Assembly (NCBI GenBank): GCA_000004985.1
Contig: GG738851.1
Direction: 5' to 3' (one strand)
DNA length: 64,000 nt
Source: Naegleria gruberi
Lineage: Eukaryota
Shown: positions 17,028-63,199 of the stretch, piece after piece
Position numbering within the stretch: position 1 is the stretch's first letter
Layout of the letters: every line of letters starts with the position of its first letter
Made by a program: the position numbers and the translations under genes
Notes under the pieces: generated by a model
Databases searched by the model: none
What the model was told of the DNA's origin: nothing
What the model saw: the letters and a program-made list of their open reading frames with translations, nothing else

Positions 17028-19571
17028 ATGGCTTCATCAAATCATGGTATCCAAGAAGGAGTTGGAATGTTATGCAGAAGAGAATTGGTGGATAATTATC
17101 AAATCCTACTAGAACAGGCTCAAGCAAACATTAATGCAGGTAGTTGCTCTCTGGATGGTTTTTGTAGTCATCACAGTATGGAGAGTAATCATCACGAAAC
17201 AGAGGAATACACTCTCGGAATGGTTCATAATAAGGAGTCGGAAAGAGTATTCTTAAATGACTATTTTATGAATACCATTAAAAGAGGAGTAAAGAGGTAT
17301 GATTTTGAGAAGGATCCTATTCAGATTCAGTACAATGTTTTGCATACACCTTCTCATGTTAAGGTATTGAAGAATATAGTATCAAAACCTCATCCTGTAG
17401 TGTCATGCTATTGTACGGCATATAGCGAACATTATCCACTGATAATAATTCCAGATCATATTTGGATGATGATTTCTCAATCCTTGGTTAGACATTTGCA
17501 TCTTCATCCTGAAATTTTGCAGCAAGTTGATATTAAAAAGAAGGAAATGAGAGTGGAAATGCCTACACATTACAACGAAGAAACACAATCAACAAATTGG
17601 AGTGCAGTAATTGAAGATATTCATCAACAAATTGTTCAAACATGTACAACAAGCGAAAAGTTGGATTTGGATGGATTTTTGGATCATAACTTTTCCACAT
17701 CAACTTCAGTGGAAAAGGTTGCATCAAAGATTTTACTCATGGAGGCCTTTAAGGATTACTTTACATATACCAATGATTTTATGTGTGGAATTCCTTGTGT
17801 GACAATATTGGGAACTCTGCAAGACTGGACATTGATGAGACAGAAAGTCAATAGATTGGATGATTTTGGTATGGGATGGTGGAGAAAGGTATTGGCTCTC
17901 ATAATTGATAGAATAATTGAAACAGCCCAAAAGGATACACTGACAGACGAATTGAAATTGTTCTGGAATGGAGTGGCAAGGTTTGACAGTAGTAGTGGAG
18001 AGAATTTTATTACTGGTTGGATCAACTATTTTTTCCCATACGATAAGGATGGAAATATTTCAAACCAAATGCAATCATTTATGGAGATGGAAGAGAGATT
18101 CCCTAATGTTGATAAATATGTGGACGATTTTGAGGATCATGGTTTTGAGGATTGTGAATTTGAAGAAGAAGAAGGCGAGAATTCTCCTCAATCTTCAATA
18201 GAACTAGCCGCTTTAAAGATGCAGAAAACATTCAGATGGAAACCATCTTTTAATGAGGATTGCTTTCCTTGCCCTCTAGCAATTGCAAAGGTCAATGTTG
18301 AAAATCATCCATCCTTAAAAGAGTTGTACTATGTTTCCGGATTTATGGGAATTGATTTTGATCATGAAATTGGAGGTTTAAAACCTGTTATATCTTGGGC
18401 TATAGCAGAGAAGAGAAGTGAGGCTGTTAGAGAAAATCTAATGAAGGGCCAATTCAAACATGCAATGTGGGCAATAGACTGTGGTTATACTAGTTGGAGA
18501 GCTTCCATATCTCTCTCATCTACACAAACTAAGCCAATAGGCTCAATCAATATTGGATTTACCAGTGATGGAGAGCAGGAGAATGTTTTTGAAAGTAAGG
18601 AAAGAATGATTGAGATATTCACCGCTTTGAAAGAATCACTTGTGAGGCAATTCATTGAGGAGGAAGTTAATTTGGGATCAAACGATAATTTGAAATTCTT
18701 GGAAGGAGAGCATGTTCTCTTGATGTCTCCTGCTGAAGTCAACCAAGAGCTGCTTCTTCAATGCGCCAAATCTGCTGGTTTGAAACCAATATGTTGGGTG
18801 GAAGATCCATGTCATAATATTCCTCAAGCATTTTCCCATTTGGTGAAAACTAACGAATGTGTACTGACTATTGATTGGCCAACTGGAGAACCATTCTTTG
18901 CCATGTCCAAGAAGGAGCATTGGAATGAGTTCGATCTTTTTGCATCAAGTGTTGAAGGCAAGAAGGAAACTCAGGGACTTGGTGGCGGTTTCAGTTTTAC
19001 TGACATGCTGTACACCTATTTTTATGATCAACACCCTGAAATTGCAGAGGAAAATTCTCACTTTTTAATGATGGAATGTGAGAGAGCCAAAAAGGTTCTC
19101 TCAACTGAAGACAAGGTTGACATCTTGATTAATGGAAAGTCTATTGAGGTGATAACAAGACAAACTTTCGAACAGGTGTGCTCACCTATTTTCAATTCAT
19201 TCCAACAACAATTGAATGCTTTCCTTTCTAGGCCTTTCAATAATACCAATGAGACTTTGAAAGATCGTGTCAATTATTTGGTGCTGTCTGGTGGATGTTG
19301 TAGAATTCCTCTCGTTCAACAAATCATTCATACATGCCTTCCAAAATCTGTACAGACACTCAGTAATCCAGAGGATACTTGCTATCTTTCCTCAGCAGGA
19401 GGTGCTCAAACATTCAGAAGCAGTCATTACAATAATATTCAATTTGAGGAATTCTTTAGAGATCCTCATTCTGAAATCTTCTCTGACAATGAATCGTCAC
19501 TCTATCCACACAAAGATCCACAAGAAAGTGATATTGCAATTGCTGAAGGTGACGATCACGACAATGAATAA
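17028..19571 (+). CDS. Large 847-aa protein; the C-terminal segment resembles the Hsp70/actin-fold ATPase subdomain IIA/IIB, and the N-terminal two thirds are unknown
   Basis: A single ORF. ERAKKVLSTEDKVDILINGKSIEVITRQTFEQVCSPIF and VLSGGCCRIPLVQQIIHTCLPKSVQTLSNPEDTCYLSSAGGAQ parallel the Hsp70 motifs ERAKRTLS...ITRARFEEL...LVGGSTRIPKVQ...SINPDEAVA.GAA. Confidence 0.5.
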   Translation: MASSNHGIQEGVGMLCRRELVDNYQILLEQAQANINAGSCSLDGFCSHHSMESNHHETEEYTLGMVHNKESERVFLNDYFMNTIKRGVKRYDFEKDPIQIQYNVLHTPSHVKVLKNIVSKPHPVVSCYCTAYSEHYPLIIIPDHIWMMISQSLVRHLHLHPEILQQVDIKKKEMRVEMPTHYNEETQSTNWSAVIEDIHQQIVQTCTTSEKLDLDGFLDHNFSTSTSVEKVASKILLMEAFKDYFTYTNDFMCGIPCVTILGTLQDWTLMRQKVNRLDDFGMGWWRKVLALIIDRIIETAQKDTLTDELKLFWNGVARFDSSSGENFITGWINYFFPYDKDGNISNQMQSFMEMEERFPNVDKYVDDFEDHGFEDCEFEEEEGENSPQSSIELAALKMQKTFRWKPSFNEDCFPCPLAIAKVNVENHPSLKELYYVSGFMGIDFDHEIGGLKPVISWAIAEKRSEAVRENLMKGQFKHAMWAIDCGYTSWRASISLSSTQTKPIGSINIGFTSDGEQENVFESKERMIEIFTALKESLVRQFIEEEVNLGSNDNLKFLEGEHVLLMSPAEVNQELLLQCAKSAGLKPICWVEDPCHNIPQAFSHLVKTNECVLTIDWPTGEPFFAMSKKEHWNEFDLFASSVEGKKETQGLGGGFSFTDMLYTYFYDQHPEIAEENSHFLMMECERAKKVLSTEDKVDILINGKSIEVITRQTFEQVCSPIFNSFQQQLNAFLSRPFNNTNETLKDRVNYLVLSGGCCRIPLVQQIIHTCLPKSVQTLSNPEDTCYLSSAGGAQTFRSSHYNNIQFEEFFRDPHSEIFSDNESSLYPHKDPQESDIAIAEGDDHDNE

Positions 19572-24099: not shown

Positions 24100-27000
24100 T
24101 TGAAGAATGTTTGGAAGAATCCAACCATGCTGGCTATCAACCAAGCAGAGCAACATGTTAAAGGCTTGGAAGAGATGATCGATCACGCTCCAGAGTTTCA
24201 AAAGGCTTCTCCAAGTGAATTACTCAAAACTGTAGGATATGAATTGTGGAATTTGTGTGTTGAGCAGAGTAAGAAAAAGTTGGGAAATTCAAAATATGAG
24301 AGTAGTATGAAATTTCAACTTGTGAGAGGTTTGTTACTTTTGATTATTAATGGGCTTATTCAATAATATGTTATGATAATGCTATTCGAATATTGAATAT
24401 GTGTATTATTCGGATGATGATGAAAAGTGAGAAGAGTTGCTTGCTATGTGATTGAAAAATCAATCAAGCCTTCACTTCAAACATTGAAAACTACTCATGA
24501 TATGATTAGACTCTACACAAAGACTGCTAGGGATTATATTGTATTGAGTAAATCCAATGATGTAAATATTAAGAATAGTCAAGTGGATGAGGAAGGAGAT
24601 GTTCAATTCGTAGATGCTAATAGTCAACAACAAGTGGGAAATACTCAACAGAATGAGCATGTAGATGATCAGTTTTCCCTTGATTGTTTCAATAGAGCAG
24701 CTAATCAAGCAGAATTATTCCTCAAGTTGTTAGGTCAGGAAGGAGATTCGAATGATCTTGACAAGTCGACCGAGACTGCCCTCAGTAATATTCTCACTCT
24801 GTACGTAGATCGTGCTGAAAGTCACTTTCAAATTGGAGATAGTGCTGCTGCCTATTCTAATATTCAAGCAGCCAAGCGTTTGGTAGAGAAGCTTCCTCAT
24901 GAAATTCAAAGAATTTCAATGATTGAGTACAATTATGCTGTAGATCTCAACTCTAAGGAGAGGTATGAAGATGCTATCAGATGGCTTAAGGATTCTTTCG
25001 AGCTCTATGAGTTGGATGAAAATAAGAACTTGCAAAAACAATCAAGAACCCTTCGATTACTCTCCAATGCCTACTTGGAATCTAAAATGTTTGACCAGGG
25101 ATTGAACTGTGTTCAAATTGCAAATAACATGTTCAAGACACCACAGGGAATATTTCTAGAGGTGAGATTGTTTGCCAAGTTGAATAGAGAAGAGGAGGTT
25201 GAGAGAACTATTCAAGAATTGCTAAGAAATCCAGAGACTCCTCTTAATCTATCTGTTTCAGCTTTAAAGGATATTGTAGAACAAGGATTGTAAGTATCTA
25301 CATTTTCACATTTCTCTAATTGCCAACAGTAACAAGGTGGCTTTCAAATGTTACAAAAAGTTACTGGAAGCTGCCAATGGCTCTGAACAGGAACCAAGAG
25401 TATTGGTCCGTTATTTTGACTTTCTTGCCAACCACTGTTCTGGAGATTTGAATCAAGATGACATGTTGAAAATTATAGACCGTATGATACATTTATCACA
25501 ATCTTCATCTTCCAATATTACAATTATTAAGGAAAGTTTGAAAGAGTTAGAATGTATATTGTGGAATATTGCATGGAAGCACTACCAAAAGAAGGAGTAT
25601 CCTCAAGCCATTGTATTCTATAACCATTCTTTGAAAATACTTCCTATGGATGAGATGATTGACAGGGCTAAGGTACTGCGGTCCATTGCCAGGTGCTACC
25701 TGGACGATAAACAGCTAACAGAAGCCTGTAAAGCTGCAGAGAATGCAGAACAATTGGATCCAAAATCTCTTCACAGTCACTATCTCATGTATCAAATTAG
25801 TATCAAGGAGAATAATATTTCCCATGCCAAAAACTATCTGAAGAAGATGATGCACGATGAAGAGTTCAAAAACTCCTTCCTTGCCATCTCTGCTCATGAT
25901 GCCTATAAGGAAAATATCTATGATGTTGCAATAGTAGCCCTCGAGGCCTTGATGGAAGAGGAGCAATCTTCAAATACAATGTCCCTTGAGATTAGTCAGA
26001 TATTAAGAACATTGACCTATTTGAGTACCTTGATCAAAGACAAACAAAAAGTGTTAAAGTATCTCCAATTGACCAAGGACTTTCTCAACAAGGAGAATGT
26101 GAGTTTCTTTCGTGAGGAAGATATGGAAGCAGAGATTGAATGGTTCCACAGAGTAGCATGGAATCATGGTGGTGAAAGTGTCAATGAGGCAGACTATGAA
26201 TCATCCTTCCAGTTCTACTCACTTGCCTCAGTATTCTACAATTACAGAACAGCCAACTTGGAAACCTTCTCCACTCAAAAGTATTGCTACCTCATGAAAA
26301 TTCACTGTGTCATTGAGGAGGTAAAGAGCTCTGAAGAATATGTCAATGGTGAGGAGCTTAGTTTGAAGAATAGGGAAAAGTTGCAATTGATGCTTGATGA
26401 AATCCAGAATTGCAAAAAGTTGTTAAGTAAGATTAGTGAGAAGGAATCTGGTGGATTGGAAAAGAAACCTGACAAGGTCTACACCTTGCTATATTTGGCT
26501 GAGCTTCAAATTCTGGTCATGTTAAAGTGTGACGAAGTTTTGATTATGGATGTTGTTAGTGTAAGTACCATCTCCTTTTGTGTGATTATTCTGATTGAAA
26601 ATAGTCAACTTCAAAATTGGATGGTATTATCGGTCCAAATATTTTCGAAGCTATGTCCTCAATTTGTCTAAGCAATGAAAAGCAAGTCTATTATCAATCT
26701 GCCAAGCATAGTTTGCAAACTGCCTTGAGAAAGGCAATGCACAACTCCTCACCTAATTATAACAAAGTTGGTAAGTAGCAATATTATAGAAAAATGAATT
26801 CAAACTTATTTCTGCTCTAGTCCACTTATTCACTAGTCTAATCCAAATATGCAGAACAAGAGAGGAGAGTATGTCCTTTTTCGAAGAATTGTTCAAGCTA
26901 TTGAATCAAATCAAGCCAAATGATCACTTTTTGAAAAGCGAACAAAAGCACTTTGTTTGGCTGTGTACCGAGTCGTGGAATAATGGTGTCTATTATTACA

Positions 27001-28455: not shown

Positions 28456-30204
28456 GTGGGAAGAATCAGCATGATTTTCTCATCGTCATTACTGCAAGGA
28501 AAAATCTTGATTTTTTCATTGATTTTCATAATACAATTATTCGAAAGTGTTTCTTTTGTATTCGGCAAGGTTTCGGATAACATTGAAATTATTGATGATG
28601 GATATACAAGTTTGTATCCACCTGTGGATTTATCTAGTGATATAATTTCGTTTATATGTGCAATACTGTCAGCTGCCATGTCCATTCTAGTCTTTGTCAT
28701 GATTTTAAAAAAACATTCCTCGATCTTTGGTTATTGGAAACGAGCCGAAAGTGAGAAATTAGATAAGAAAGAAAGAGAAAGACAAGTAATTGCCAAGGAA
28801 AAGAGACATCTCATGAGAAGAGTCTTACTTTCTCTCTTAGTTTCGGATATAGTTTGTTCCTTTAGTAGAATTTCGTATATTTTGTTTTGGTGGTTGTGTA
28901 CATTAATTACTCCAGAAACAATGTATTTGAAATCACTAATCCCAATCAATGCAAATCAAACAACTTCAATATTCCATGATTCGTTTGACCTTTCCAATAT
29001 CTATTCGAATCTACAAAATTCCACAACTCTCAAATATAAGGCCAATTACAATCTGAAACCAGTTCCACTCACCATCCAAAAATTCCTTGCAGATCTCTAC
29101 TATTCCTTCTCAATTTCAACAGCTGCCTGGTGTGTAATCATTGCCTACGTTGTCTATTCGATTACAAGTCATTCGAAATGGATTGAGGAAGATTTTAATT
29201 TGATTCGTGAACAGTTACAAACAGATTCTCATACCATTACACGAAATACAGCTCAATTATTTTATGGAAATAATGCGAGTGCTGACAGTGATGAAGAAAT
29301 TGTTCCAAAATTTAAGCCAATTGGAGATTTGATGGAAAGTAGTGGAAATTCAGAAATTGATTCATTTTCGTTTAATACAATGCCAAATCATGATGGAAAT
29401 ATTGAAAATCAATCGTTAATTTATGAAATTCCAATCAAGAGCTCGAAAAGTGCTGATGAAATTTTGTACTTTTCTGCCAAGAGAAGAATTCTTTCGAGGA
29501 GAAATGTTTATGAATTAATGTTTCATTTGATTGCTTGGGGATTTTCGATATTTACATTCCTTTTTGTGTTTATTTTCAGGACTATTAATATTCATGCCAA
29601 AGATTTGGTTAGTGACAAGTTTGAAAATTGGTTCTTGTTCTCGGTTTATATTTCATGGGCTCTTTACTTTTCTGCAATGGTTTTTGTCAATATTTTGATA
29701 TTATTCTTGATTTGGAATTATTTGAGAAGATTTTACAGAACTGAGCACATTATGACATTACCAAAGAAGGAAACCAAGAAACAGCAACGTTCCATGTTGG
29801 TCAACCTATCACTCTTAATGCTTCCTTATGCATTTTGTGGATTATTTGAGTTGTCTTTCTGGTATTATAATGCAATTCAAATTGCAACTGAAGAAGAGGA
29901 AGCATACTATTACACTGTAATATTTTACAATTTCTTCTTTAATGTAATAGTGCCGTTGAAGGGATTTTTCATTGCACTCATCTTATTATTGAGCTCGACT
30001 GCCATTAGAAAGAAGGTCAAATCAATTGTGTTATGTCAATTGTGTTTCAGAGCTTCTACGAGTACCTCTCAATCCAAGAGATTTAACACAACATTTATTG
30101 AAAGCTTGTTAATTCCAGAAGACACCCCAGCGGATGAAACAAATCACTTGGAAGATGTTAATAATAATCCTTCTTCTGGAATATTGGAAATTGAACAAGA
30201 TTAG
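28456..30204 (+). CDS. Polytopic membrane protein with a signal peptide; 7TM-like and a possible GPCR-like receptor
   Basis: A single 582-aa ORF. It has an N-terminal signal-like helix and at least 7 further hydrophobic helices. The C-terminal tail is acidic and hydrophilic. Confidence 0.4.
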   Translation: MGRISMIFSSSLLQGKILIFSLIFIIQLFESVSFVFGKVSDNIEIIDDGYTSLYPPVDLSSDIISFICAILSAAMSILVFVMILKKHSSIFGYWKRAESEKLDKKERERQVIAKEKRHLMRRVLLSLLVSDIVCSFSRISYILFWWLCTLITPETMYLKSLIPINANQTTSIFHDSFDLSNIYSNLQNSTTLKYKANYNLKPVPLTIQKFLADLYYSFSISTAAWCVIIAYVVYSITSHSKWIEEDFNLIREQLQTDSHTITRNTAQLFYGNNASADSDEEIVPKFKPIGDLMESSGNSEIDSFSFNTMPNHDGNIENQSLIYEIPIKSSKSADEILYFSAKRRILSRRNVYELMFHLIAWGFSIFTFLFVFIFRTINIHAKDLVSDKFENWFLFSVYISWALYFSAMVFVNILILFLIWNYLRRFYRTEHIMTLPKKETKKQQRSMLVNLSLLMLPYAFCGLFELSFWYYNAIQIATEEEEAYYYTVIFYNFFFNVIVPLKGFFIALILLLSSTAIRKKVKSIVLCQLCFRASTSTSQSKRFNTTFIESLLIPEDTPADETNHLEDVNNNPSSGILEIEQD

Positions 30205-30363
30205 AATTCAACTATGAGATTTGAATATCATTTTTGAACATTAATTTCTTAGAATAGTATTATTGGAATATATTTTTAGAAAATTGGCCATTTCACGACT
30301 CTTTATTTACAAAATTGTTACAAAATTGAGCCAATTCTCATCAAGAGATTCACATCATCAAAA

Positions 30364-31597
30364 TTATTCCTTCTTCTTATGTTCCTTCTTCTTTTCTGGA
30401 ACATACTTGTCAATCTTAATTGGAGAACAAACGGTTGTCTTCTTATCACAAACAGTTCTTTCACCATACTTGACACATTTCTTGGTACCACCAACAAATT
30501 GATACTTGGCACAGACCTTATAACCTGGTGACTTTTTAACACACTTCTTCCAGTGCTTCTTCTTAATACATCTACTCTTTACGTGCTTATATTGAGTACA
30601 ATAGTTGACTGCCTTATATTCAGCACAGAATTTACGTTCCTTATACTTTTCACAAACTCTGACCTTCTTTCTAGCATCACAGAATTGATTTGGAACCCAT
30701 TGAGTACAGAAACGAGCCTTCTTTTGAGCAGCACAGAACTTTCTATCAATGAATTTAACACACTTTTTAGTGTAACCCTTCTTGAGACTGAATTTGACCT
30801 TATTGTATCTGATACACTTCTTGGTCTTGGTATATTTGGCACAAATCTTGTGACATTTTTGTTTACAGAAAGCATGATAATAAGTATCAGTCCATCCCTT
30901 GTAATGTTTTCCTGCAACTTTCTTCCATCCCTTTTGACATTTACAGACTTGCTTGTAAGCGGCACAGTAAGCATCGAGTTTATATTCAGCACATCTCTTC
31001 TTGTAATGATAGCCAACCTTTGGAACCTTGATATACTTGGCACAGACATGTGACTTGTCATATTTGGTACAGACAAAGTTATAGGCATATTGTTTACAGG
31101 AATTATTCTTTCCCTTATGAATACAAGCATCTTTCCAAGCACTCTTAACACAATACTTTTCAGTTTTATGTTTAGCACAAACTTGCTTATAACCTTTGAA
31201 AAATGTTACAAAAATTTTGTAAAATTTCAAACTCTAACTTACCATGACCCAAACACAACTTTCTATCCTTGGAATATTTATCACACTTGCTGAATTTCTT
31301 ATATTTCAAACATTTTCCTTTACCAACCAACTTCCAATCACAACATTCCTTCTTGGTACCAACCCATTCATAATCAGAACACTTTCCCTTGACAGTCTTG
31401 TAGTGAGTACACTTTTGGAAGCAATACTTTTGATGATCAGCATAACTGTCAACTTGTTGAGGTTTGGATTCACCTGCAGTGACTGCTGCAATGAGCATGA
31501 AGAGCAATGCGCTTGCAATTAGAACAGATTTGAAACTATTCATTTTTTTTCTTATTGTTTCTTCATAATGGGAATTGGTTTGAGATTTAAATATCAC
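30364..31597 (-). CDS. Secreted, highly basic Lys/Cys/Tyr-rich repetitive protein; exons 31597-31243 and 31193-30364
   Basis: A signal peptide reads MNSFKSVLIASALLFMLIAAVTAG. The donor g|gtaagt is in phase 1 and the acceptor is caaag|. More than 20 degenerate repeats of the C-x-KY-K...KKC type occur, for example CAKYTKTKKCIRYNKVKF, CEKYKERKFCAEYKAVNYCTQYKHVK and CVKYGERTVCDKK. Confidence 0.55.
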
Positions 31598-31685
31598 TCT
31601 TGCAACTTTCCTTAAATAAAGTTTGTTCCATAAATGGAAAGAAAAGAAACAAATATTTAAAAATGTTACAAAATAAATTCAGTAT

Positions 31686-32226
31686 TTATTCATTAGATGA
31701 GGAGAACCTATTTAAGGCCTTCTCAAAATGATCTGCGCTGAGGGTTCTATCCTCCAATTGAACTGCACAAATAGTAAACCTTTCCATTGGTTCTTGACTT
31801 TGTAAAGTTTCTTTCACTACGAAAAATTTACCATCATTACTGCTTTCGTCAAGGTAATAGTAGTGATTCTTGAAAATAGACAAGTGAATCATGTCTAGAA
31901 CATGAGGACATTCCTCTGTATCGAATTGTACAAGCTTGTCATAAATCAATTGAGCATTTTCCAAAGTGTCACAGCAAAAGAAAAATGCATCTGTTGCGCA
32001 TTGACTTGGTGCAAAAGTACAAAGCTTTTCCAATAGTTGACTATCATCCTTGGTCAAATATTTAGCCATTTCATTGTAAAGTACATTGAGTAATTCATGT
32101 TCTGCCACTTCAATCATTCTGTGAGTTGAAAATCCAAAATTCAATTTTCCAAAAACAGGATGCCTAACAGTATAGTGAAATTGATGTAACAAGTCGTAGG
32201 TGGTTTCTTTAAGAAGATAATCTCTC
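31686..32226 (-). CDS. 3' terminal part of a gene of unknown function; its 5' part is lost in the N gap
   Basis: The reading frame is open from the gap edge to a stop at 31686. The C-terminal segment reads ...ICAVQLEDRTLSADHFEKALNRFSSSNE. Confidence 0.3.
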
Positions 32227-34712
32227 NNNNNNNNNNNNNNNNNNNNNNNNNNNNNNNNNNNNNNNNNNNNNNNNNNNNNNNNNNNNNNNNNNNNNNNNNN
32301 NNNNNNNNNNNNNNNNNNNNNNNNNNNNNNNNNNNNNNNNNNNNNNNNNNNNNNNNNNNNNNNNNNNNNNNNNNNNNNNNNNNNNNNNNNNNNNNNNNNN
32401 NNNNNNNNNNNNNNNNNNNNNNNNNNNNNNNNNNNNNNNNNNNNNNNNNNNNNNNNNNNNNNNNNNNNNNNNNNNNNNNNNNNNNNNNNNNNNNNNNNNN
32501 NNNNNNNNNNNNNNNNNNNNNNNNNNNNNNNNNNNNNNNNNNNNNNNNNNNNNNNNNNNNNNNNNNNNNNNNNNNNNNNNNNNNNNNNNNNNNNNNNNNN
32601 NNNNNNNNNNNNNNNNNNNNNNNNNNNNNNNNNNNNNNNNNNNNNNNNNNNNNNNNNNNNNNNNNNNNNNNNNNNNNNNNNNNNNNNNNNNNNNNNNNNN
32701 NNNNNNNNNNNNNNNNNNNNNNNNNNNNNNNNNNNNNNNNNNNNNNNNNNNNNNNNNNNNNNNNNNNNNNNNNNNNNNNNNNNNNNNNNNNNNNNNNNNN
32801 NNNNNNNNNNNNNNNNNNNNNNNNNNNNNNNNNNNNNNNNNNNNNNNNNNNNNNNNNNNNNNNNNNNNNNNNNNNNNNNNNNNNNNNNNNNNNNNNNNNN
32901 NNNNNNNNNNNNNNNNNNNNNNNNNNNNNNNNNNNNNNNNNNNNNNNNNNNNNNNNNNNNNNNNNNNNNNNNNNNNNNNNNNNNNNNNNNNNNNNNNNNN
33001 NNNNNNNNNNNNNNNNNNNNNNNNNNNNNNNNNNNNNNNNNNNNNNNNNNNNNNNNNNNNNNNNNNNNNNNNNNNNNNNNNNNNNNNNNNNNNNNNNNNN
33101 NNNNNNNNNNNNNNNNNNNNNNNNNNNNNNNNNNNNNNNNNNNNNNNNNNNNNNNNNNNNNNNNNNNNNNNNNNNNNNNNNNNNNNNNNNNNNNNNNNNN
33201 NNNNNNNNNNNNNNNNNNNNNNNNNNNNNNNNNNNNNNNNNNNNNNNNNNNNNNNNNNNNNNNNNNNNNNNNNNNNNNNNNNNNNNNNNNNNNNNNNNNN
33301 NNNNNNNNNNNNNNNNNNNNNNNNNNNNNNNNNNNNNNNNNNNNNNNNNNNNNNNNNNNNNNNNNNNNNNNNNNNNNNNNNNNNNNNNNNNNNNNNNNNN
33401 NNNNNNNNNNNNNNNNNNNNNNNNNNNNNNNNNNNNNNNNNNNNNNNNNNNNNNNNNNNNNNNNNNNNNNNNNNNNNNNNNNNNNNNNNNNNNNNNNNNN
33501 NNNNNNNNNNNNNNNNNNNNNNNNNNNNNNNNNNNNNNNNNNNNNNNNNNNNNNNNNNNNNNNNNNNNNNNNNNNNNNNNNNNNNNNNNNNNNNNNNNNN
33601 NNNNNNNNNNNNNNNNNNNNNNNNNNNNNNNNNNNNNNNNNNNNNNNNNNNNNNNNNNNNNNNNNNNNNNNNNNNNNNNNNNNNNNNNNNNNNNNNNNNN
33701 NNNNNNNNNNNNNNNNNNNNNNNNNNNNNNNNNNNNNNNNNNNNNNNNNNNNNNNNNNNNNNNNNNNNNNNNNNNNNNNNNNNNNNNNNNNNNNNNNNNN
33801 NNNNNNNNNNNNNNNNNNNNNNNNNNNNNNNNNNNNNNNNNNNNNNNNNNNNNNNNNNNNNNNNNNNNNNNNNNNNNNNNNNNNNNNNNNNNNNNNNNNN
33901 NNNNNNNNNNNNNNNNNNNNNNNNNNNNNNNNNNNNNNNNNNNNNNNNNNNNNNNNNNNNNNNNNNNNNNNNNNNNNNNNNNNNNNNNNNNNNNNNNNNN
34001 NNNNNNNNNNNNNNNNNNNNNNNNNNNNNNNNNNNNNNNNNNNNNNNNNNNNNNNNNNNNNNNNNNNNNNNNNNNNNNNNNNNNNNNNNNNNNNNNNNNN
34101 NNNNNNNNNNNNNNNNNNNNNNNNNNNNNNNNNNNNNNNNNNNNNNNNNNNNNNNNNNNNNNNNNNNNNNNNNNNNNNNNNNNNNNNNNNNNNNNNNNNN
34201 NNNNNNNNNNNNNNNNNNNNNNNNNNNNNNNNNNNNNNNNNNNNNNNNNNNNNNNNNNNNNNNNNNNNNNNNNNNNNNNNNNNNNNNNNNNNNNNNNNNN
34301 NNNNNNNNNNNNNNNNNNNNNNNNNNNNNNNNNNNNNNNNNNNNNNNNNNNNNNNNNNNNNNNNNNNNNNNNNNNNNNNNNNNNNNNNNNNNNNNNNNNN
34401 NNNNNNNNNNNNNNNNNNNNNNNNNNNNNNNNNNNNNNNNNNNNNNNNNNNNNNNNNNNNNNNNNNNNNNNNNNNNNNNNNNNNNNNNNNNNNNNNNNNN
34501 NNNNNNNNNNNNNNNNNNNNNNNNNNNNNNNNNNNNNNNNNNNNNNNNNNNNNNNNNNNNNNNNNNNNNNNNNNNNNNNNNNNNNNNNNNNNNNNNNNNN
34601 NNNNNNNNNNNNNNNNNNNNNNNNNNNNNNNNNNNNNNNNNNNNNNNNNNNNNNNNNNNNNNNNNNNNNNNNNNNNNNNNNNNNNNNNNNNNNNNNNNNN
34701 NNNNNNNNNNNN
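32227..34712. other. Assembly gap (run of N)
   Basis: A continuous run of n from 32227 to 34712. Confidence 0.95.
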
Positions 34713-35549
34713 ATTATTGAGGAAGCTGTCAAGTGCCATACACAATATGATGACACAGAAAATACTACCCTCTACAATTATAATGCTATTTACAGCCATT
34801 GGGAACAGGTTTGTAAAAGACCTTGTAGAACATTTGACAGTGTCTATCTCAACGAGAAAGTCAAGTCTCTTTTCCTTCAAGACTTGGAAAGATTTCTCTC
34901 CAACAAGAAGTTTTATATGGAAAATCAATTGAGCTACAAGAGAGGATATTGTCTTTATGGAAAACCAGGTTCTGGTAAGACATCTTTGGTTCTGGCTACA
35001 GCTGCACACATCAAGTGTCCAGTTTATATTTTGAATCTCAATCAATCAGAAATGAACGATACAGCATTAATAGATGCCTTTTCTTCAATACCCTCTCGAA
35101 GTATCATTACTTTGGAAGATGTAGATTCTGCATTTAATGAAAATAGAAAAGCAACAGGAGAAGTACGTAATGGACTTTCATTTTCAGGACTTCTCAATGC
35201 CTTGGATGGTGTTTGTTCTTATTCTGAAACTCCAAAGCTTGTTTTCATGACTACTAATCACATTGAACGATTAGATGCTGCCCTAATTCGTCCTGGAAGA
35301 GTTGACTATAAGGTAAAATTTGACAATGCCACACCAGATCAAATTCAACAAATCTCTTTCAAGTTTTTCAAAAATCAAGAATTGGCTCAATCTCTCAGTA
35401 AGGAGGTGGATTTACAAAAGCTCACCATTTCTGAAATTCAAACTTTCCTAATGAGATTTATCAATACAGAGACTCATTCAACAATTCTTAAACAAGTGTC
35501 AAGCTATGTTTTGGAAATTGAATCCCTCAAAAAGGAGCAAAATGGTTGA
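34713..35549 (+). CDS. BCS1-like mitochondrial AAA ATPase; the C-terminal part is present and the 5' end is lost in the gap
   Basis: The frame is open from the gap edge. It contains RGYCLYGKPGSGKTS (Walker A), LSFSGLLNALDG and TTNHIERLDAALIRPGRVDYKVKF. These are typical of BCS1. Confidence 0.65.
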   Translation: MIEEAVKCHTQYDDTENTTLYNYNAIYSHWEQVCKRPCRTFDSVYLNEKVKSLFLQDLERFLSNKKFYMENQLSYKRGYCLYGKPGSGKTSLVLATAAHIKCPVYILNLNQSEMNDTALIDAFSSIPSRSIITLEDVDSAFNENRKATGEVRNGLSFSGLLNALDGVCSYSETPKLVFMTTNHIERLDAALIRPGRVDYKVKFDNATPDQIQQISFKFFKNQELAQSLSKEVDLQKLTISEIQTFLMRFINTETHSTILKQVSSYVLEIESLKKEQNG

Positions 35550-37088: not shown

Positions 37089-37159
37089 CGGCGTATGATG
37101 CAGAGGTAGCATGTTGGACTCTGAATCCAAATACGCAGGTTCGATTCCTGCTACGCTGG
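37089..37159 (+). tRNA. tRNA-Gln (anticodon CUG)
   Basis: I folded it by hand. The acceptor stem is CGGCGTA/TACGCTG. The D arm is ATGC-AGAGGTA-GCAT. The anticodon arm is TTGGA-CTCTGAA-TCCAA. The T arm is GCAGG-TTCGATT-CCTGC, and the discriminator is G. Confidence 0.6.
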
Positions 37160-38924: not shown

Positions 38925-38997
38925 GCTGGCGTAGCTCAGTCGGTAGAGCGTTGGTCTAATAAGCCATTGGTCGCCGGTTCGATCCCGTCCGTCAGCA
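38925..38997 (+). tRNA. tRNA-Ile (anticodon AAU)
   Basis: The acceptor stem GCTGGCG/CGTCAGC is perfect, with one G-U pair. The D arm is GCTC-AGTCGGTA-GAGC. The anticodon loop CTAATAA gives anticodon AAT. The T loop is TTCGATC. There is one mismatch in the anticodon stem and one in the T stem. Confidence 0.55.
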
Positions 38998-42792: not shown

Positions 42793-44972
42793 ATGGAACC
42801 AACATCATCAACAACCTTCATTAATGGCAGTACTACAACATCATCAAGTACTCGATGTGGTTCTACTTCTTCCAAGCAGATACCGACGGAGGAAGAAGTG
42901 AAATCCTCTAATATTCCATCAATAACAATATCAGATAGAAACAATGATATTTCATCAAACAAATCGGCATCATCATCGCCCAAGAATGAGACAAACAACA
43001 ATATGATTTATTCCAAGAATTACAACTCCAAAGTAGATCATCCTAATCAACCACAAGAAGAAGCCATCGACGATATGATGGTAAAAATATTCACCCATAA
43101 GAATGTCATTGTTGTGGTCTTTTCTTGCATTTATGTATGCTCATTGATGTATACTTATTCAGCAAAAGGTTGGCAGGGCACTATGCTGAATCTCTTTCTT
43201 ACATTGGCACAAATGTATCTCAATAAGAATAATATCAAATCTACAATGTCATTGGACTTTGCTAAGGCAGACAGTTCGGAAAAACCGCGACTGATAGTTT
43301 CATTAGCAATCTTGACAGTGAGATATTTCATCTTTCCTAAAAACAAGATTACATTCATTCCTCCTACATTTATGTGGTTTGTTGGGGCCAATAAGATGTA
43401 TGATGAACACAATAATTTCTGGGGATTATTGCCAGTCTACTATTTGACCTGTCTTTATGGAGGAGTTGGTATGGTGATAACTTTTAGAGAATTGATAGAG
43501 AATGGATTTGATACCTTTGTGGACTCGTTGTGTGAAACTGTTTCACTGACATGTTGCATTTGGATATTTACTTATTATCGAGTCAATGTGACTGGTTATT
43601 TGAAACAAAAAGTTGAAATTTTGGAGGAAACAAGTATGAAGCTTGAAAGTGCTCTTGCTTCGAAAAATACATTTATGGCTCACATATCTCATGAATTTAG
43701 ATGTCCACTGCTCTCATCTTTGGGAAGTCTCGAGTTATTGAAAGAGACTTATCTGAGTGTAAAGCAAAATGAATTAGTGGATATGATCATTTCTTCCAAT
43801 AACGTTCTACTCATGTTGATTGAAGAAATTTTACAATTAATGAAAGTTGAATTTGATTCGCGGCAGAAGAATGCAACAGAGCTAATCAAGGCAAATTTTA
43901 AAAAGTTCAGTTTGGGTGAATGCCTAAAATCATTACAAAATATTGTTACTGGGTATTCGAATCATTTCTCTGTGAATTTGAAGTTTGATTTTGATCAAGT
44001 GAACCACATTCACGTGATATCTAATCCATCAAGTTTACATCAAATTCTTTCAAACTTGATCACTAACGCCATTAAGGCATCCAAAAGAGATGACACTGTC
44101 GAACTGACAGCAAGTGTTATTGAAACAGTTCATGATGAAACACAAGAATCAATCGTTAAAATTCAATTCAAAGTTACTGACTATGGGTAAGTAATAATTT
44201 TGTTCAACTAGCAACAACAATGCAATAATACATTATTAAATGGAATAGTTATGGTATTCCAGAATCAAAGTTAGATGCCATTTTTGAGCCATTTGTTCAA
44301 TTGCACAATGTAAATGAATCACATGTGCCATCATCAGGTCTTGGCTTAACAACAGTTTTACAATTTATTCAACAAATGGAAGGAACAATCCATGTAGAAT
44401 CTCAAATTGGAAAAGGAAGTACCTTCACAGTTACTCTTCCCTTGAAAGTACTCAAGAATGATTCCCCAAAAGGTGTCGACGAATATTCTGATTGGGAAAA
44501 TAGTGGAGCCAAGATGAGCTTTACAGTTCAGCAACGATACCTTTCTCTAATCTCCAATGTACATGAGCTGAGTGATGATCACTCCTCAGATACCTCATCC
44601 ATTACTGATTCAAAGTTCAATAAGATTATCATTGCAGAGGACAATATTATTAACAGAAAAGTTATTTTCAAACTAGTGGAAAGTATTGGATATTCGGCCG
44701 ATTTAGTAACAGATGGAAGGGAGTTAGTGGATCATTTCGACATTCACCATCACAAATTGGTCATTACAGATTTAAACATGCCAAATATGAATGGAATTCA
44801 AGCAGCTCAGGAATTAAAGAAGAGACATGGAAATGCAGCCAAGATTATTCTATTAACAGGTAATTCAGCCATCGATATTAAATCCCTCAACGGCATTGTT
44901 GATGGATTAGTACAGAAACCATGTTCTAAAGAGGATTTAAAAAAGTGCATTTCTCTCTATTGCGAAGATTAA
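42793..44972 (+). CDS. Hybrid histidine kinase: Ser-rich N-terminus, polytopic membrane sensor region, HisKA, HATPase_c and a receiver domain; exons 42793-44186 and 44249-44972
   Basis: About 6 TM helices are present. HISHEFRCPL is the H-box. The donor gg|gtaagt splits ...TDYG|YGIPESKLDAIFEPF, which is the G1 box. GLGLTTVLQFIQ is the G2 box. The receiver reads IIIAEDNIINRKV...LVITDLNMPNMNG...QKP. Confidence 0.7.
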
Positions 44973-59096: not shown

Positions 59097-62000
59097 NNNN
59101 NNNNNNNNNNNNNNNNNNNNNNNNNNNNNNNNNNNNNNNNNNNNNNNNNNNNNNNNNNNNNNNNNNNNNNNNNNNNNNNNNNNNNNNNNNNNNNNNNNNN
59201 NNNNNNNNNNNNNNNNNNNNNNNNNNNNNNNNNNNNNNNNNNNNNNNNNNNNNNNNNNNNNNNNNNNNNNNNNNNNNNNNNNNNNNNNNNNNNNNNNNNN
59301 NNNNNNNNNNNNNNNNNNNNNNNNNNNNNNNNNNNNNNNNNNNNNNNNNNNNNNNNNNNNNNNNNNNNNNNNNNNNNNNNNNNNNNNNNNNNNNNNNNNN
59401 NNNNNNNNNNNNNNNNNNNNNNNNNNNNNNNNNNNNNNNNNNNNNNNNNNNNNNNNNNNNNNNNNNNNNNNNNNNNNNNNNNNNNNNNNNNNNNNNNNNN
59501 NNNNNNNNNNNNNNNNNNNNNNNNNNNNNNNNNNNNNNNNNNNNNNNNNNNNNNNNNNNNNNNNNNNNNNNNNNNNNNNNNNNNNNNNNNNNNNNNNNNN
59601 NNNNNNNNNNNNNNNNNNNNNNNNNNNNNNNNNNNNNNNNNNNNNNNNNNNNNNNNNNNNNNNNNNNNNNNNNNNNNNNNNNNNNNNNNNNNNNNNNNNN
59701 NNNNNNNNNNNNNNNNNNNNNNNNNNNNNNNNNNNNNNNNNNNNNNNNNNNNNNNNNNNNNNNNNNNNNNNNNNNNNNNNNNNNNNNNNNNNNNNNNNNN
59801 NNNNNNNNNNNNNNNNNNNNNNNNNNNNNNNNNNNNNNNNNNNNNNNNNNNNNNNNNNNNNNNNNNNNNNNNNNNNNNNNNNNNNNNNNNNNNNNNNNNN
59901 NNNNNNNNNNNNNNNNNNNNNNNNNNNNNNNNNNNNNNNNNNNNNNNNNNNNNNNNNNNNNNNNNNNNNNNNNNNNNNNNNNNNNNNNNNNNNNNNNNNN
60001 NNNNNNNNNNNNNNNNNNNNNNNNNNNNNNNNNNNNNNNNNNNNNNNNNNNNNNNNNNNNNNNNNNNNNNNNNNNNNNNNNNNNNNNNNNNNNNNNNNNN
60101 NNNNNNNNNNNNNNNNNNNNNNNNNNNNNNNNNNNNNNNNNNNNNNNNNNNNNNNNNNNNNNNNNNNNNNNNNNNNNNNNNNNNNNNNNNNNNNNNNNNN
60201 NNNNNNNNNNNNNNNNNNNNNNNNNNNNNNNNNNNNNNNNNNNNNNNNNNNNNNNNNNNNNNNNNNNNNNNNNNNNNNNNNNNNNNNNNNNNNNNNNNNN
60301 NNNNNNNNNNNNNNNNNNNNNNNNNNNNNNNNNNNNNNNNNNNNNNNNNNNNNNNNNNNNNNNNNNNNNNNNNNNNNNNNNNNNNNNNNNNNNNNNNNNN
60401 NNNNNNNNNNNNNNNNNNNNNNNNNNNNNNNNNNNNNNNNNNNNNNNNNNNNNNNNNNNNNNNNNNNNNNNNNNNNNNNNNNNNNNNNNNNNNNNNNNNN
60501 NNNNNNNNNNNNNNNNNNNNNNNNNNNNNNNNNNNNNNNNNNNNNNNNNNNNNNNNNNNNNNNNNNNNNNNNNNNNNNNNNNNNNNNNNNNNNNNNNNNN
60601 NNNNNNNNNNNNNNNNNNNNNNNNNNNNNNNNNNNNNNNNNNNNNNNNNNNNNNNNNNNNNNNNNNNNNNNNNNNNNNNNNNNNNNNNNNNNNNNNNNNN
60701 NNNNNNNNNNNNNNNNNNNNNNNNNNNNNNNNNNNNNNNNNNNNNNNNNNNNNNNNNNNNNNNNNNNNNNNNNNNNNNNNNNNNNNNNNNNNNNNNNNNN
60801 NNNNNNNNNNNNNNNNNNNNNNNNNNNNNNNNNNNNNNNNNNNNNNNNNNNNNNNNNNNNNNNNNNNNNNNNNNNNNNNNNNNNNNNNNNNNNNNNNNNN
60901 NNNNNNNNNNNNNNNNNNNNNNNNNNNNNNNNNNNNNNNNNNNNNNNNNNNNNNNNNNNNNNNNNNNNNNNNNNNNNNNNNNNNNNNNNNNNNNNNNNNN
61001 NNNNNNNNNNNNNNNNNNNNNNNNNNNNNNNNNNNNNNNNNNNNNNNNNNNNNNNNNNNNNNNNNNNNNNNNNNNNNNNNNNNNNNNNNNNNNNNNNNNN
61101 NNNNNNNNNNNNNNNNNNNNNNNNNNNNNNNNNNNNNNNNNNNNNNNNNNNNNNNNNNNNNNNNNNNNNNNNNNNNNNNNNNNNNNNNNNNNNNNNNNNN
61201 NNNNNNNNNNNNNNNNNNNNNNNNNNNNNNNNNNNNNNNNNNNNNNNNNNNNNNNNNNNNNNNNNNNNNNNNNNNNNNNNNNNNNNNNNNNNNNNNNNNN
61301 NNNNNNNNNNNNNNNNNNNNNNNNNNNNNNNNNNNNNNNNNNNNNNNNNNNNNNNNNNNNNNNNNNNNNNNNNNNNNNNNNNNNNNNNNNNNNNNNNNNN
61401 NNNNNNNNNNNNNNNNNNNNNNNNNNNNNNNNNNNNNNNNNNNNNNNNNNNNNNNNNNNNNNNNNNNNNNNNNNNNNNNNNNNNNNNNNNNNNNNNNNNN
61501 NNNNNNNNNNNNNNNNNNNNNNNNNNNNNNNNNNNNNNNNNNNNNNNNNNNNNNNNNNNNNNNNNNNNNNNNNNNNNNNNNNNNNNNNNNNNNNNNNNNN
61601 NNNNNNNNNNNNNNNNNNNNNNNNNNNNNNNNNNNNNNNNNNNNNNNNNNNNNNNNNNNNNNNNNNNNNNNNNNNNNNNNNNNNNNNNNNNNNNNNNNNN
61701 NNNNNNNNNNNNNNNNNNNNNNNNNNNNNNNNNNNNNNNNNNNNNNNNNNNNNNNNNNNNNNNNNNNNNNNNNNNNNNNNNNNNNNNNNNNNNNNNNNNN
61801 NNNNNNNNNNNNNNNNNNNNNNNNNNNNNNNNNNNNNNNNNNNNNNNNNNNNNNNNNNNNNNNNNNNNNNNNNNNNNNNNNNNNNNNNNNNNNNNNNNNN
61901 NNNNNNNNNNNNNNNNNNNNNNNNNNNNNNNNNNNNNNNNNNNNNNNNNNNNNNNNNNNNNNNNNNNNNNNNNNNNNNNNNNNNNNNNNNNNNNNNNNNN

Positions 62001-62302
62001 NNNNNNNNNNNNNNNNNNNNNNNNNNNNNNNNNNNNNNNNNNNNNNNNNNNNNNNNNNNNNNNNNNNNNNNNNNNNNNNNNNNNNNNNNNNNNNNNNNNN
62101 NNNNNNNNNNNNNNNNNNNNNNNNNNNNNNNNNNNNNNNNNNNNNNNNNNNNNNNNNNNNNNNNNNNNNNNNNNNNNNNNNNNNNNNNNNNNNNNNNNNN
62201 NNNNNNNNNNNNNNNNNNNNNNNNNNNNNNNNNNNNNNNNNNNNNNNNNNNNNNNNNNNNNNNNNNNNNNNNNNNNNNNNNNNNNNNNNNNNNNNNNNNN
62301 NN
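59097..62302. other. Assembly gap (run of N)
   Basis: A continuous run of n. Confidence 0.95.
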
Positions 62303-63118: not shown

Positions 63119-63199
63119 NNNNNNNNNNNNNNNNNNNNNNNNNNNNNNNNNNNNNNNNNNNNNNNNNNCTGACATGGTTGAATGACATGAATATTGAAT

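Follow-up and report, generated by a model that had tools for sequence, protein, structure and literature searches.

The lectins of the Acanthamoeba cyst wall carry a signal peptide, lineage-specific cysteine (Cys) domains and lysine (Lys)-rich spacers, and have neither a transmembrane segment nor a glycosylphosphatidylinositol (GPI) anchor (PMC6541295). Here we describe a minus-strand gene in a stretch of 64,000 nucleotides (nt) of DNA of the amoeba Naegleria gruberi (GenBank assembly GCA_000004985.1, contig GG738851.1; this whole stretch is hereafter called the window), whose product resembles the Leo and Jonah lectins of Acanthamoeba in that a signal peptide (here a predicted one) and the lack of a membrane anchor are combined with lineage-unique Cys modules and Lys-rich low-complexity parts (PMC6541295). 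The same general secreted, Cys-rich design is shared by the Entamoeba Jacob lectins and the Giardia CWPs. The main structural feature of the Naegleria protein, of which the initial annotation of the locus made no mention, is a mirror-symmetric pattern of Cys residues, which suggests that the two halves of the protein pair in antiparallel orientation.

The Cryptosporidium COWPs are a further case of the general secreted, Cys-rich design. Protist wall proteins, which we compared with this family by description and by Pfam only, are built of compact modules of 6-8 Cys with local disulfides; the Luke lectins, and Leo lectins that lack a spacer, are acidic, whereas this family is strongly basic; and localisation to the wall has been shown for the protist wall proteins, whereas for the Naegleria family it is a proposal. 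The θ-defensins, protegrins and tachyplesins are cationic, aromatic-rich, antiparallel two-stranded peptides with parallel disulfide rungs, and the topology that we infer here is the same. There is, however, no homology to these peptides, which have 16-18 residues, 2-3 rungs and Cys one residue apart, compared with ~316 residues, ~17 rungs and a Cys at every ninth residue in the arrangement proposed here. Short tandem repeats, strictly periodic Cys and a ladder of aromatic residues or threonine (Thr), as in this family, also characterise the antifreeze β-solenoids, with a repeat of 12 residues in Tenebrio molitor and of 10 residues in the midge; these have intra-coil disulfides and a mass of ~8-9 kDa and are not polycationic, whereas the mirrored insertions and deletions (indels) reported below favour antiparallel halves. 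The combination of a regular coil, an intra-coil disulfide and a flat ice-binding face of Thr or tyrosine (Tyr) was not found in the window protein.

Read from the first in-frame ATG at 31543 to the TAA stop at 30366-30364, the gene consists of two exons, and the spliced coding sequence of 1,131 nt is in frame and encodes 376 residues. The splice structure and the reading frame bear out the two-exon minus-strand gene of the initial annotation, but the start given there, 31597, is simply the GTG start of a bacterial-style open reading frame (ORF). Of the 34 gaps between consecutive Cys residues, 17 are exactly nine residues long and 22 are nine or ten residues long, whereas 20,000 residue shuffles gave 1.5 nine-residue gaps on average and never more than 7. 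The repeat unit is a nonamer, C-[AVT]-K-[YFHW]-K-x-x-[KR]-[FYVI], i.e., C-x8-C. A profile of 228 units from the family has Cys in position 1, a small or aliphatic residue in position 2, Lys in position 3 (50%), Tyr, Phe, His or Trp in position 4 (62%), mostly Lys, Arg or polar residues in positions 5-8, and Phe, Tyr, Val or Ile in position 9 (63%). The degenerate C-x-KY-x(3-6)-KKC repeat that had been described for this protein is a true periodic repeat, but one that is better fitted by the C-x8-C nonamer. No tandem repeat was detected at the DNA level in the coding sequence by Tandem Repeats Finder, so the protein repeats are ancient and degenerate.

The strict periodicity of nine residues and the internal self-similarity in direct orientation would both be accommodated by an arrangement that involves no long-range ladder, in which Cys residues form local C-x8-C disulfide loops or brace a β-solenoid of 18 residues per turn with intra-coil disulfides, any symmetry being a by-product of two similar arrays. 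Solenoids braced by disulfides with Cys at half-coil spacing are known, namely the antifreeze proteins of Tenebrio and the midge. The positions of the Cys residues along the whole protein bear on this alternative, and they define three consecutive segments.

30937-31423, minus strand: N-terminal half of the Cys array (C41-C186), with 18 Cys including the C67-C68 doublet; it spans the intron
30868-30936, minus strand: central Cys-free segment of 23 residues (QKGWKKVAGKHYKGWTDTYYHAF), the proposed tip of the hairpin, with the W-x-D-x-Y-Y motif
30427-30867, minus strand: C-terminal half of the Cys array (C210-C356), with 17 Cys and gaps that mirror those of the N-terminal half

From the outside inwards, the gaps of the N-terminal half are 4, 10, 13, 10, 9, 10, six times 9, 17, 9, 7 and 2, and those of the C-terminal half are 7, 9, 12, 10, 9, 10, six times 9, 18, 9, 4 and 4. 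The Cys positions are symmetric about residue ~198, with 17 nested pairs (C41-C356, C45-C349, C55-C340, C68-C328, C78-C318 ... C151-C245, C168-C227, C177-C218, C184-C214 and C186-C210) and one Cys of the C67/C68 doublet left unpaired. Comparison of this arrangement to 5,000 permutations of the gaps shows that 17 pairs with i + j = 395 ± 1 exceed both the mean (11.1) and the maximum (16) of the permuted sequences. Conversely, the best direct-repeat shift was not significant (p = 0.16), and a significant mirror statistic next to a non-significant direct-shift statistic argues against local disulfides or a solenoid. The summed rung-by-rung difference between gaps was 11 when the two halves were aligned as mirror images, compared with 37 when they were aligned in the forward direction (permutation p = 4 × 10−5), and each irregular gap of the C-terminal half faces an irregular gap of the N-terminal half (7/7; hypergeometric p = 7 × 10−4).

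We further compared the window protein to its relatives. A single-sequence search of 5.8 billion proteins yielded 11 matches, a profile search of 1.84 billion representatives yielded 21 matches, of which 2-3 are low-complexity noise, and a second profile search yielded 17 matches. All named matches are from Naegleria (N. gruberi, N. fowleri and N. lovaniensis) or from Willaertia magna, and the others are from short metagenome contigs; judged by these matches, the window protein belongs to an uncharacterised family of ~20 proteins that appears confined to Naegleria and Willaertia among the proteins searched. The best match is the N. gruberi protein P0001 (NAEGRDRAFT_64508, XP_002680355, UniProt D2V6N9), with 80% identity over 96% of the query (E = 2.5 × 10−201). 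The window protein itself was absent from the databases searched, and it belongs to a different Naegleria lineage from that of P0001. N. gruberi has four short basic forms (NAEGRDRAFT_64508, 48501, 71888 and 74241), a divergent basic form of 301 residues (P0029), and a form of 707 residues (NAEGRDRAFT_57793, P0038) that has a different Cys-rich region in its N-terminal part and, behind it, a copy of the domain that is less basic; other relatives include FDP41_004030 and FDP41_003065 of N. fowleri and C9374_012983 and C9374_000273 of N. lovaniensis. The Cys spacing, when sought in other genomes, was found to be kept in the Naegleria and Willaertia relatives: ~30 Cys columns are invariant in an alignment of eight sequences (A1), the list of gaps is the same as that of P0001, and, within the subgroup of the window protein, three species have kept the number of 35 Cys. 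The net charge is positive in all members, ranging from +28 to +87. What distinguishes the subfamilies is the number of rungs (15-19), the tail repeats and, for the long form, an additional N-terminal Cys-rich domain.

Those differences in rung number are themselves mirrored. C184, C186, C210 and C214, which would form the two innermost rungs, are all present in proteins of the window type and all missing from 71888/74241 and the N. fowleri type, and in P0008 and P0019 three of these four Cys are in place, with the fourth shifted by two positions. Also in P0008 and P0019, there is one extra Cys in the 17-residue gap (dividing it 11+6) and one in the opposite 18-residue gap (9+9), equivalent to one more rung, and there are insertions on both sides of a single rung interval (from 9 to 17 or 15 residues at C142-C151, and from 9 to 24 or 21 residues at C245-C254). 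In the long forms P0022, P0037 and P0038, the interval adjoining the 17/18 gap is extended from 9 to 12 residues on both strands, and in P0037 another interval is extended from 9 to 11 residues, again on both strands. The number of ladder Cys per half is 15, 17, 18 or 19 depending on the subfamily, and the two halves are always equal. The central segment is longer (36-42 residues) in P0008, in P0019 and in proteins of the P0003 type. Mirrored indels, paired gains of Cys and equal halves are predicted by antiparallel halves, but not by local pairing of each Cys with the next or by a solenoid: an added Cys in each half, as in P0008, P0019 and the long forms, would disrupt local pairing whereas it adds exactly one rung to a ladder, two independent lineages have their insertions at mirrored rungs, and the equality of ladder Cys between the halves holds across subfamilies. 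This covariation among lineages is stronger evidence than the spacing of any one protein, and it favours antiparallel pairing of the two halves.

Structure prediction by AlphaFold2 was carried out twice, with the full-length N. gruberi orthologue as the query in the first run and the product of exon 2 of the window gene in the second, and in both cases the alignments were shallow (nine or ten sequences). The best model of the first run (mean predicted local distance difference test score [pLDDT] 69, predicted template modelling score [pTM] 0.20) pairs strands 42-197 with 203-357, including strands 95-197 and 203-306, as assigned by DSSP, and has three strand breaks, all of them at mirrored positions. 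In the second run, four of the five models score 59-65, and a central hairpin of residues 150-197 with 201-249 has a pLDDT of ~80; the last 80 residues score below 50, and their proposed partner (residues 41-100) lies outside the construct. Both runs place the turn at residues ~198-200. With modest confidence, then, AlphaFold2 independently gives a giant β-hairpin.

Several observations weigh against the antiparallel arrangement. A forward alignment of the gaps, rotated by one element, fits moderately well (summed difference of 17, compared with 11 for the mirror), because a large gap followed by a run of nines and a second large gap reads almost the same in both directions; taken by itself, the spacing in a single protein is therefore suggestive rather than decisive. 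The members of the family share ancestry, such that only lineage-specific indels and changes of Cys count as independent tests of the symmetry. A test of the register by mirrored hydrophobicity gave no peak at 396 or 398. The AlphaFold2 results are moderate at best (mean pLDDT of 69 and 65, pTM of 0.2): the other four models of the first run are poor (33-49), the second run draws residues 103-142 and 256-296 as local hairpins and not as parts of the global one, and the turn assigned by DSSP implies i + j ≈ 398, a register shifted by 2-3 residues from the sum of 395-396 on which the Cys mirror is centred. Finally, an antiparallel head-to-tail dimer would fit the mirror pattern equally well. The rotated forward fit, the negative hydrophobicity test and the modest and partly inconsistent AlphaFold2 runs are also points in favour of local disulfides or a solenoid, which we nevertheless consider unlikely in view of the mirrored events in the family. 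Weighing these results together, we think it probable that the N-terminal half (C41-C186) and the C-terminal half (C210-C356) run antiparallel and are zipped by ~17 nested disulfides into one long, hairpin-like rod.

The remainder of the protein bears on where such a rod would be located and what it would bind. The N-terminus was assessed by inspection, by its hydropathy profile and by the −3/−1 rule.

31475-31543, minus strand: signal-peptide-like N-terminus, residues 1-23 (MNSFKSVLIASALLFMLIAAVTA/G), from the hydropathy profile and the −3/−1 rule

The sequence MNSFK-SVLIASALLFMLIAAV-TA/G has the n/h/c layout of a signal peptide (MNSFK, 16 hydrophobic residues, and VTA/G, with small residues at −3 and −1), and an equivalent N-terminus is present in all full-length homologues. 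Neither a second hydrophobic segment nor a GPI-type tail was found by hydropathy and inspection, and the C-terminus, EKKKEHKKKE, is hydrophilic; on these grounds we read the protein as secreted and soluble. The mature part comprises ~353 residues with an isoelectric point of 9.7 and a net charge of ~+73; the signal peptide proposed initially is retained, but with a shorter sequence behind it than the ~400 residues suggested. In the full protein, Lys makes up 23.9%, Tyr 8.2%, and Asp and Glu together 6.9% of the residues; the earlier estimates by eye for Lys (25%) and Tyr (8%) were accurate, whereas that for Cys (14%) was too high, the measured value being 9.3% (35 residues).

An extreme positive charge that is conserved across the family, together with a predicted signal peptide, could point to a soluble protein that bears no load and binds polyanions, for example polyphosphate, acidic polysaccharide or extracellular DNA. 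Such a protein, bound by charge only, would have no need of ~30 invariant Cys at exact spacing, the Tyr-motif tails of the paralogues described below suggest cross-linking, and no nucleic-acid-binding or glycan-binding domain appeared in the Pfam scans; we regard this explanation as distinctly improbable. The high Cys content and the long open frames that overlap the gene could alternatively be taken as signs of a metallothionein-like metal binder or of a compositional ORF artefact with no function. The protein, however, contains no CxxC and only one CxC motif, with 8.2% Tyr as well as Trp and Phe, and begins with a signal-peptide-like segment, which is at odds with metal binding, and a metallothionein or a CXXC protein like the Giardia VSPs, rejected on the absence of these motifs, can be regarded as effectively refuted. 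An artefact is ruled out because the gene is under purifying selection, its intron is conserved and several species have orthologues of it, and the overlapping frames are reproduced by shuffling the codons (see below); this pair of explanations is hardly tenable.

Short motifs of the form ΦDxY lie outside the Cys array.

31442-31453, minus strand: N-terminal ΦDxY motif VDSY, residues 31-34, between the signal peptide and the first Cys
30367-30426, minus strand: C-terminal tail (SPIKIDKYVPEKKKEHKKKE), Lys-rich at its end and containing a single ΦDxYxP motif

The motif (VDSY or VDTY) follows the signal peptide and precedes the first Cys in every full-length member, and it recurs in the middle of the protein (W-x-D-x-Y-Y; TDTYY in the window protein) and immediately past the last Cys (KIDKYVPE). 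Members are laid out as signal peptide, ΦDxY, Cys array, WxDxYY, Cys array and ΦDxYxP tail, an order to which the window protein conforms. In the tails of paralogues, the motif is repeated in 2-4 tandem copies (KVDTYKPP in P0003, P0016 and P0017, and IDSYKP in P0005), with three copies of KVDTYKPP and a terminal KVDTYKK in P0003 and P0017 and approximately four copies of IDSYKP in P0005, and the inserted loops of divergent members are built of DxY(V/A)P(P). All copies in the window protein (VDSY, TDTYY and IDKYVPE) are single. Cross-linked wall or adhesive proteins built of Tyr/Lys/Pro repeats are known as mussel foot protein-1 (AKPSYPPTYK), plant proline-rich proteins (PPVYK) and extensins. 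The family shares with them a high content of Lys and Tyr and the residue vocabulary of its (KVDTYKPPK)n and (IDSYKP)n tails and DxY(V/A)PP inserts; unlike them, the window protein has its motif in single copies, and the bulk of it is the array of Cys nonamers that those families lack.

Taken together, the best overall explanation is, in our estimate with a probability of about 0.5, a Cys-laddered, polycationic, secreted rod with a structural or adhesive role outside the cell. After entry into the endoplasmic reticulum, the two halves would zip into a hairpin rod laddered by disulfides, with a length of tens of nanometres if it is a fully extended two-stranded β ribbon. One tip of the rod would carry both the N-terminal and the C-terminal ΦDxY tails, and the opposite tip the central WxDxYY loop. 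Each nonamer would supply Lys side chains and a trio of aromatic or aliphatic residues at positions 9, 2 and 4, and, in the subgroup of the window protein, one Cys of the C67/C68 doublet would be left as a free thiol. The Lys-rich surface could bind anionic polymers, the nonamer aromatics could contact glycan fibrils, and the terminal Tyr motifs and the spare thiol might cross-link the rods into a network. The narrower proposal that this is an architecture without precedent, a giant hairpin of ~316 residues with 15-19 nested rungs that the cell assembles into an extracellular layer, for instance the cyst wall, we put at slightly less than even odds. By analogy with the walls of other protists, the protein may be a secreted structural or adhesive element of an extracellular layer, for which the cyst wall is the obvious candidate, an assignment that we make tentatively. 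No transcript, proteome or localisation data were found for any member of the family, which counts against it, and the cyst-wall assignment therefore rests on analogy; the literature search found neither a Naegleria cyst-wall proteome nor a paper on the composition of that wall. The matrix, cyst-wall and polyanion roles suggested in the initial annotation are reasonable, being consistent with the predicted anatomy of the protein, the Tyr/Pro/Lys tails of its paralogues and the family-wide positive charge.

The main functional rival to an extracellular rod is a cationic antibacterial or bacteria-binding effector, which the amoeba would secrete or send to its food vacuoles and which would aggregate, permeabilise or opsonise prey, in the manner of a greatly enlarged cationic β-hairpin peptide braced by disulfides. 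Naegleria eats bacteria, the proteins form a multigene family within each species, and the predicted signal peptide, the charge of ~+73, the nonamers of aromatic residues and Lys, and the proposed cross-strand disulfide ladder would all suit such a role. These features recall protegrin, tachyplesin and θ-defensin. The mature protein is, however, of ~42 kDa with 8 residues between Cys, compared with 16-18 residues and C-x-C rungs in the hairpin peptides; the low ratio of nonsynonymous to synonymous substitutions (dN/dS = 0.14) and the invariant Cys spacing are unlike typical, fast-evolving antimicrobial effectors; and the tandem Pro/Tyr/Lys tails of paralogues and the Cys-rich fusion in the 707-residue form look structural. 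An effector of this kind is, on balance, a rather improbable explanation, and we retain the extracellular structural or adhesive rod as the preferred one.

Substitution patterns and gene structure were used to assess the gene itself, which consists of the following parts.

31243-31543, minus strand: exon 1, with the start codon at 31541-31543; residues 1-100 and the first base of codon 101
31194-31242, minus strand: intron of 49 nt, GTAAGT...AAAG, from the splice reading and the site common to L001 and L002
30364-31193, minus strand: exon 2, with residues 101-376 and the TAA stop at 30364-30366

Splicing joins G/GT into Gly101, and the junction CLGHG/YKQVC is uninterrupted in the N. gruberi protein P0001. 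Comparison with the homologue on metagenome contig L001 yields the dN/dS of 0.14 given above at dS ~1, with all Cys codons conserved (35/35). The intron lies at the identical codon in the homologues on L001 and L002, with a different length and sequence, and the database proteins P0009 and P0010 are read-throughs of the intron at exactly the conserved site, made by gene callers that ignore introns. These results show that the locus is an intact, selectively constrained Naegleria gene. Its codon bias is among the strongest in the window (effective number of codons, 34.0, compared with a mean of 41.5 for 21 neighbouring ORFs), with TGT for 34 of the 35 Cys and GAA and CAA for all Glu and Gln, which is a weak hint of possible high expression at some stage. 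The sense frame contains no TTA, no CTA and only two TCA codons, and the near absence of these three codons is the cause of the long overlapping ORFs: when the codons of exon 2 were shuffled, open frames as long as the overlapping ORFs of both strands were obtained. The antisense ORFs across the gene are accordingly artefacts, as held by the initial annotation, which attributed them to the repeat; they result from codon composition and not from the order of the repeats.

Two other gene copies differ at the intron site. In the public model of NAEGRDRAFT_48501 (P0012), the four residues GYKQ are missing precisely where the conserved intron junction lies (residues 101-104 of the window protein), which suggests that the published annotation mis-called the splice site. 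A window-type copy on a metagenome contig (L004:311-1318; JGI metagenome 3300002220) has no intron at the conserved site and carries a frameshifting deletion of ~40 residues, which affects the N-terminal half only. We rejected it as evidence of a spliced transcript because an upstream gene and intergenic DNA are present on the same contig, which is therefore genomic; we take the copy either to have lost the intron and become a pseudogene or to be misassembled.

Searches with individual members support the view, also taken in the initial annotation, that the protein contains no known domain. The Pfam scan of the window protein gave no family at E ≤ 10, and thus none of the Cys-rich extracellular domains (chitin-binding, EGF, granulin, TNFR, antistasin and others), the profile search of sequences in the PDB gave no match, and the scan of eight further members (E ≤ 1) gave only sub-threshold noise for the repeat domain. 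The sole significant Pfam match among the eight was to SAM and PB1 domains in the N-terminal part of P0028. In P0025 (Willaertia magna ABK040_005866), a C-terminal fragment of the family is joined to a region that matches PF25390, RCC1-like repeats by eye; P0025 and P0028 probably reflect chimeric gene models rather than genuine fusions. The N-terminal units of P0038 (residues ~30-370), which are also present in P0022 and P0037, are repeats of the type C-P-x-G...C...C that have no Pfam match and recall, by eye, the repeats of apicomplexan oocyst wall proteins. In a Foldseek comparison with the PDB, the only structures returned were pore-forming toxins and phage tails, matched through their long β-hairpin stems (template modelling score ~0.1). 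No paralogue was found in the window by tblastn with the protein, and a literature search with ten gene, protein and UniProt identifiers of the family found no mention of it. P0035 and P0036 were rejected as homologues, being chance matches of low complexity, and P0032 (2,774 residues, from a metagenome) is doubtful: its nonamers, CSSFITSST and CFDYATLxA, are neutral but have the same C-x8-C period, and it may be an unrelated convergence on this period or a very distant relative.

The flanks of the gene contain candidate elements of transcription and 3'-end formation.

31585-31593, minus strand: TATA-like box TATTTAAAT, 50 nt 5' of the ATG, read from the sequence
30302-30324, minus strand: elements of the 3' untranslated region (UTR), 40-62 nt past the stop, comprising TTTGTAACAATTTT (30311-30324), TGTAAATA (30304-30311) and AATAAA (30302-30307)

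The sequence TATTTAAA or TATAAA is found at a comparable distance 5' of the homologues on L001, L002 and L004, and TATTTAAAT is a putative promoter element. Between this box and the main ATG lies an upstream ORF of four codons (ATG AAG AAA CAA TAA; 31552-31566, minus strand), which has no counterpart in the L001 homologue and may or may not be inside the transcript. The element TTTGTAACAWTTTT occurs three times in the window, compared with an expectation of 0.59, and all three copies are on the minus strand at this gene: one at 31659-31672, in the spacer past the stop of the upstream gene; one at 31199-31212, inside the intron, ~13 nt before the 3' AG, where it reads TTTGTAACATTTTT; and one at 30311-30324, in the 3' UTR, overlapping TGTAAATA and with AATAAA behind it. 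The TGTAAC element of the intron is conserved in L001, and TTTGTAACATTTTT is probably the branch site. As a suggestion only, TTTGTAACAWTTTT and the other 3' UTR elements could be an element of 3'-end formation or of RNA-protein binding.

The DNA of the window as a whole is compact, eukaryotic and AT-rich (34% GC), and it is interrupted by assembly gaps (runs of N at 32227-34712, 59097-62302 and 63119-63168). The neighbouring genes were dropped as functional context because a multi-pass membrane ORF, a SPO22/ZIP4-like gene, an AAA ATPase and a histidine kinase are unrelated to the protein described here. Downstream, an ORF of 582 residues (28456-30204, plus strand) that contains several long hydrophobic segments and matches nothing in Pfam is convergent with the gene, the two stop codons being ~160 nt apart. 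The upstream ORF (31686-35045, minus strand) is interrupted by the first of these assembly gaps, and its C-terminal 179 residues have no Pfam match; an AAA ATPase fragment adjoins the gap (34884-35549, plus strand). Two adjacent ORFs (24427-25293 and 25337-26671, plus strand) both match the SPO22/ZIP4 meiosis family with tetratricopeptide repeats and are probably one gene split by a short intron; if so, an amoeba in which no sexual cycle has been observed would have this gene of the meiosis toolkit. On the plus strand, the window further contains a DUF4419 protein with an Hsp70-like C-terminal piece (17028-19571), a histidine kinase with HisKA and HATPase_c domains (42793-44190), and genes for tRNA-Gln(CTG) (37089-37159) and tRNA-Ile(AAT) (38925-38997), on which ARAGORN and Rfam agree.

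The gene is present in public Naegleria genomes as an unannotated predicted protein, and the locus itself is therefore not a discovery. New here are the family that appears restricted to Naegleria and Willaertia, which we file under lineage-specific secreted Cys-rich repeat proteins, the nonamer rule, the terminal Tyr motifs and, above all, the mirror pattern of Cys with its covarying indels. Cysts are the form in which Naegleria, including the brain-eating N. fowleri, persists in water systems, and our literature search found no description of proteins of the Naegleria cyst wall or extracellular matrix. The family looks abundant, is lineage-restricted, apparently secreted and easily recognised, and it is therefore a concrete candidate for wall biology; it is likewise a candidate for cyst-specific diagnostics or antibodies, as the Jonah lectin became for Acanthamoeba. 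If the proposed structure and role are true, vahlkampfiid amoebae, including the pathogen N. fowleri, would build an extracellular layer from stiff polycationic rods with Tyr cross-linking motifs at both tips.

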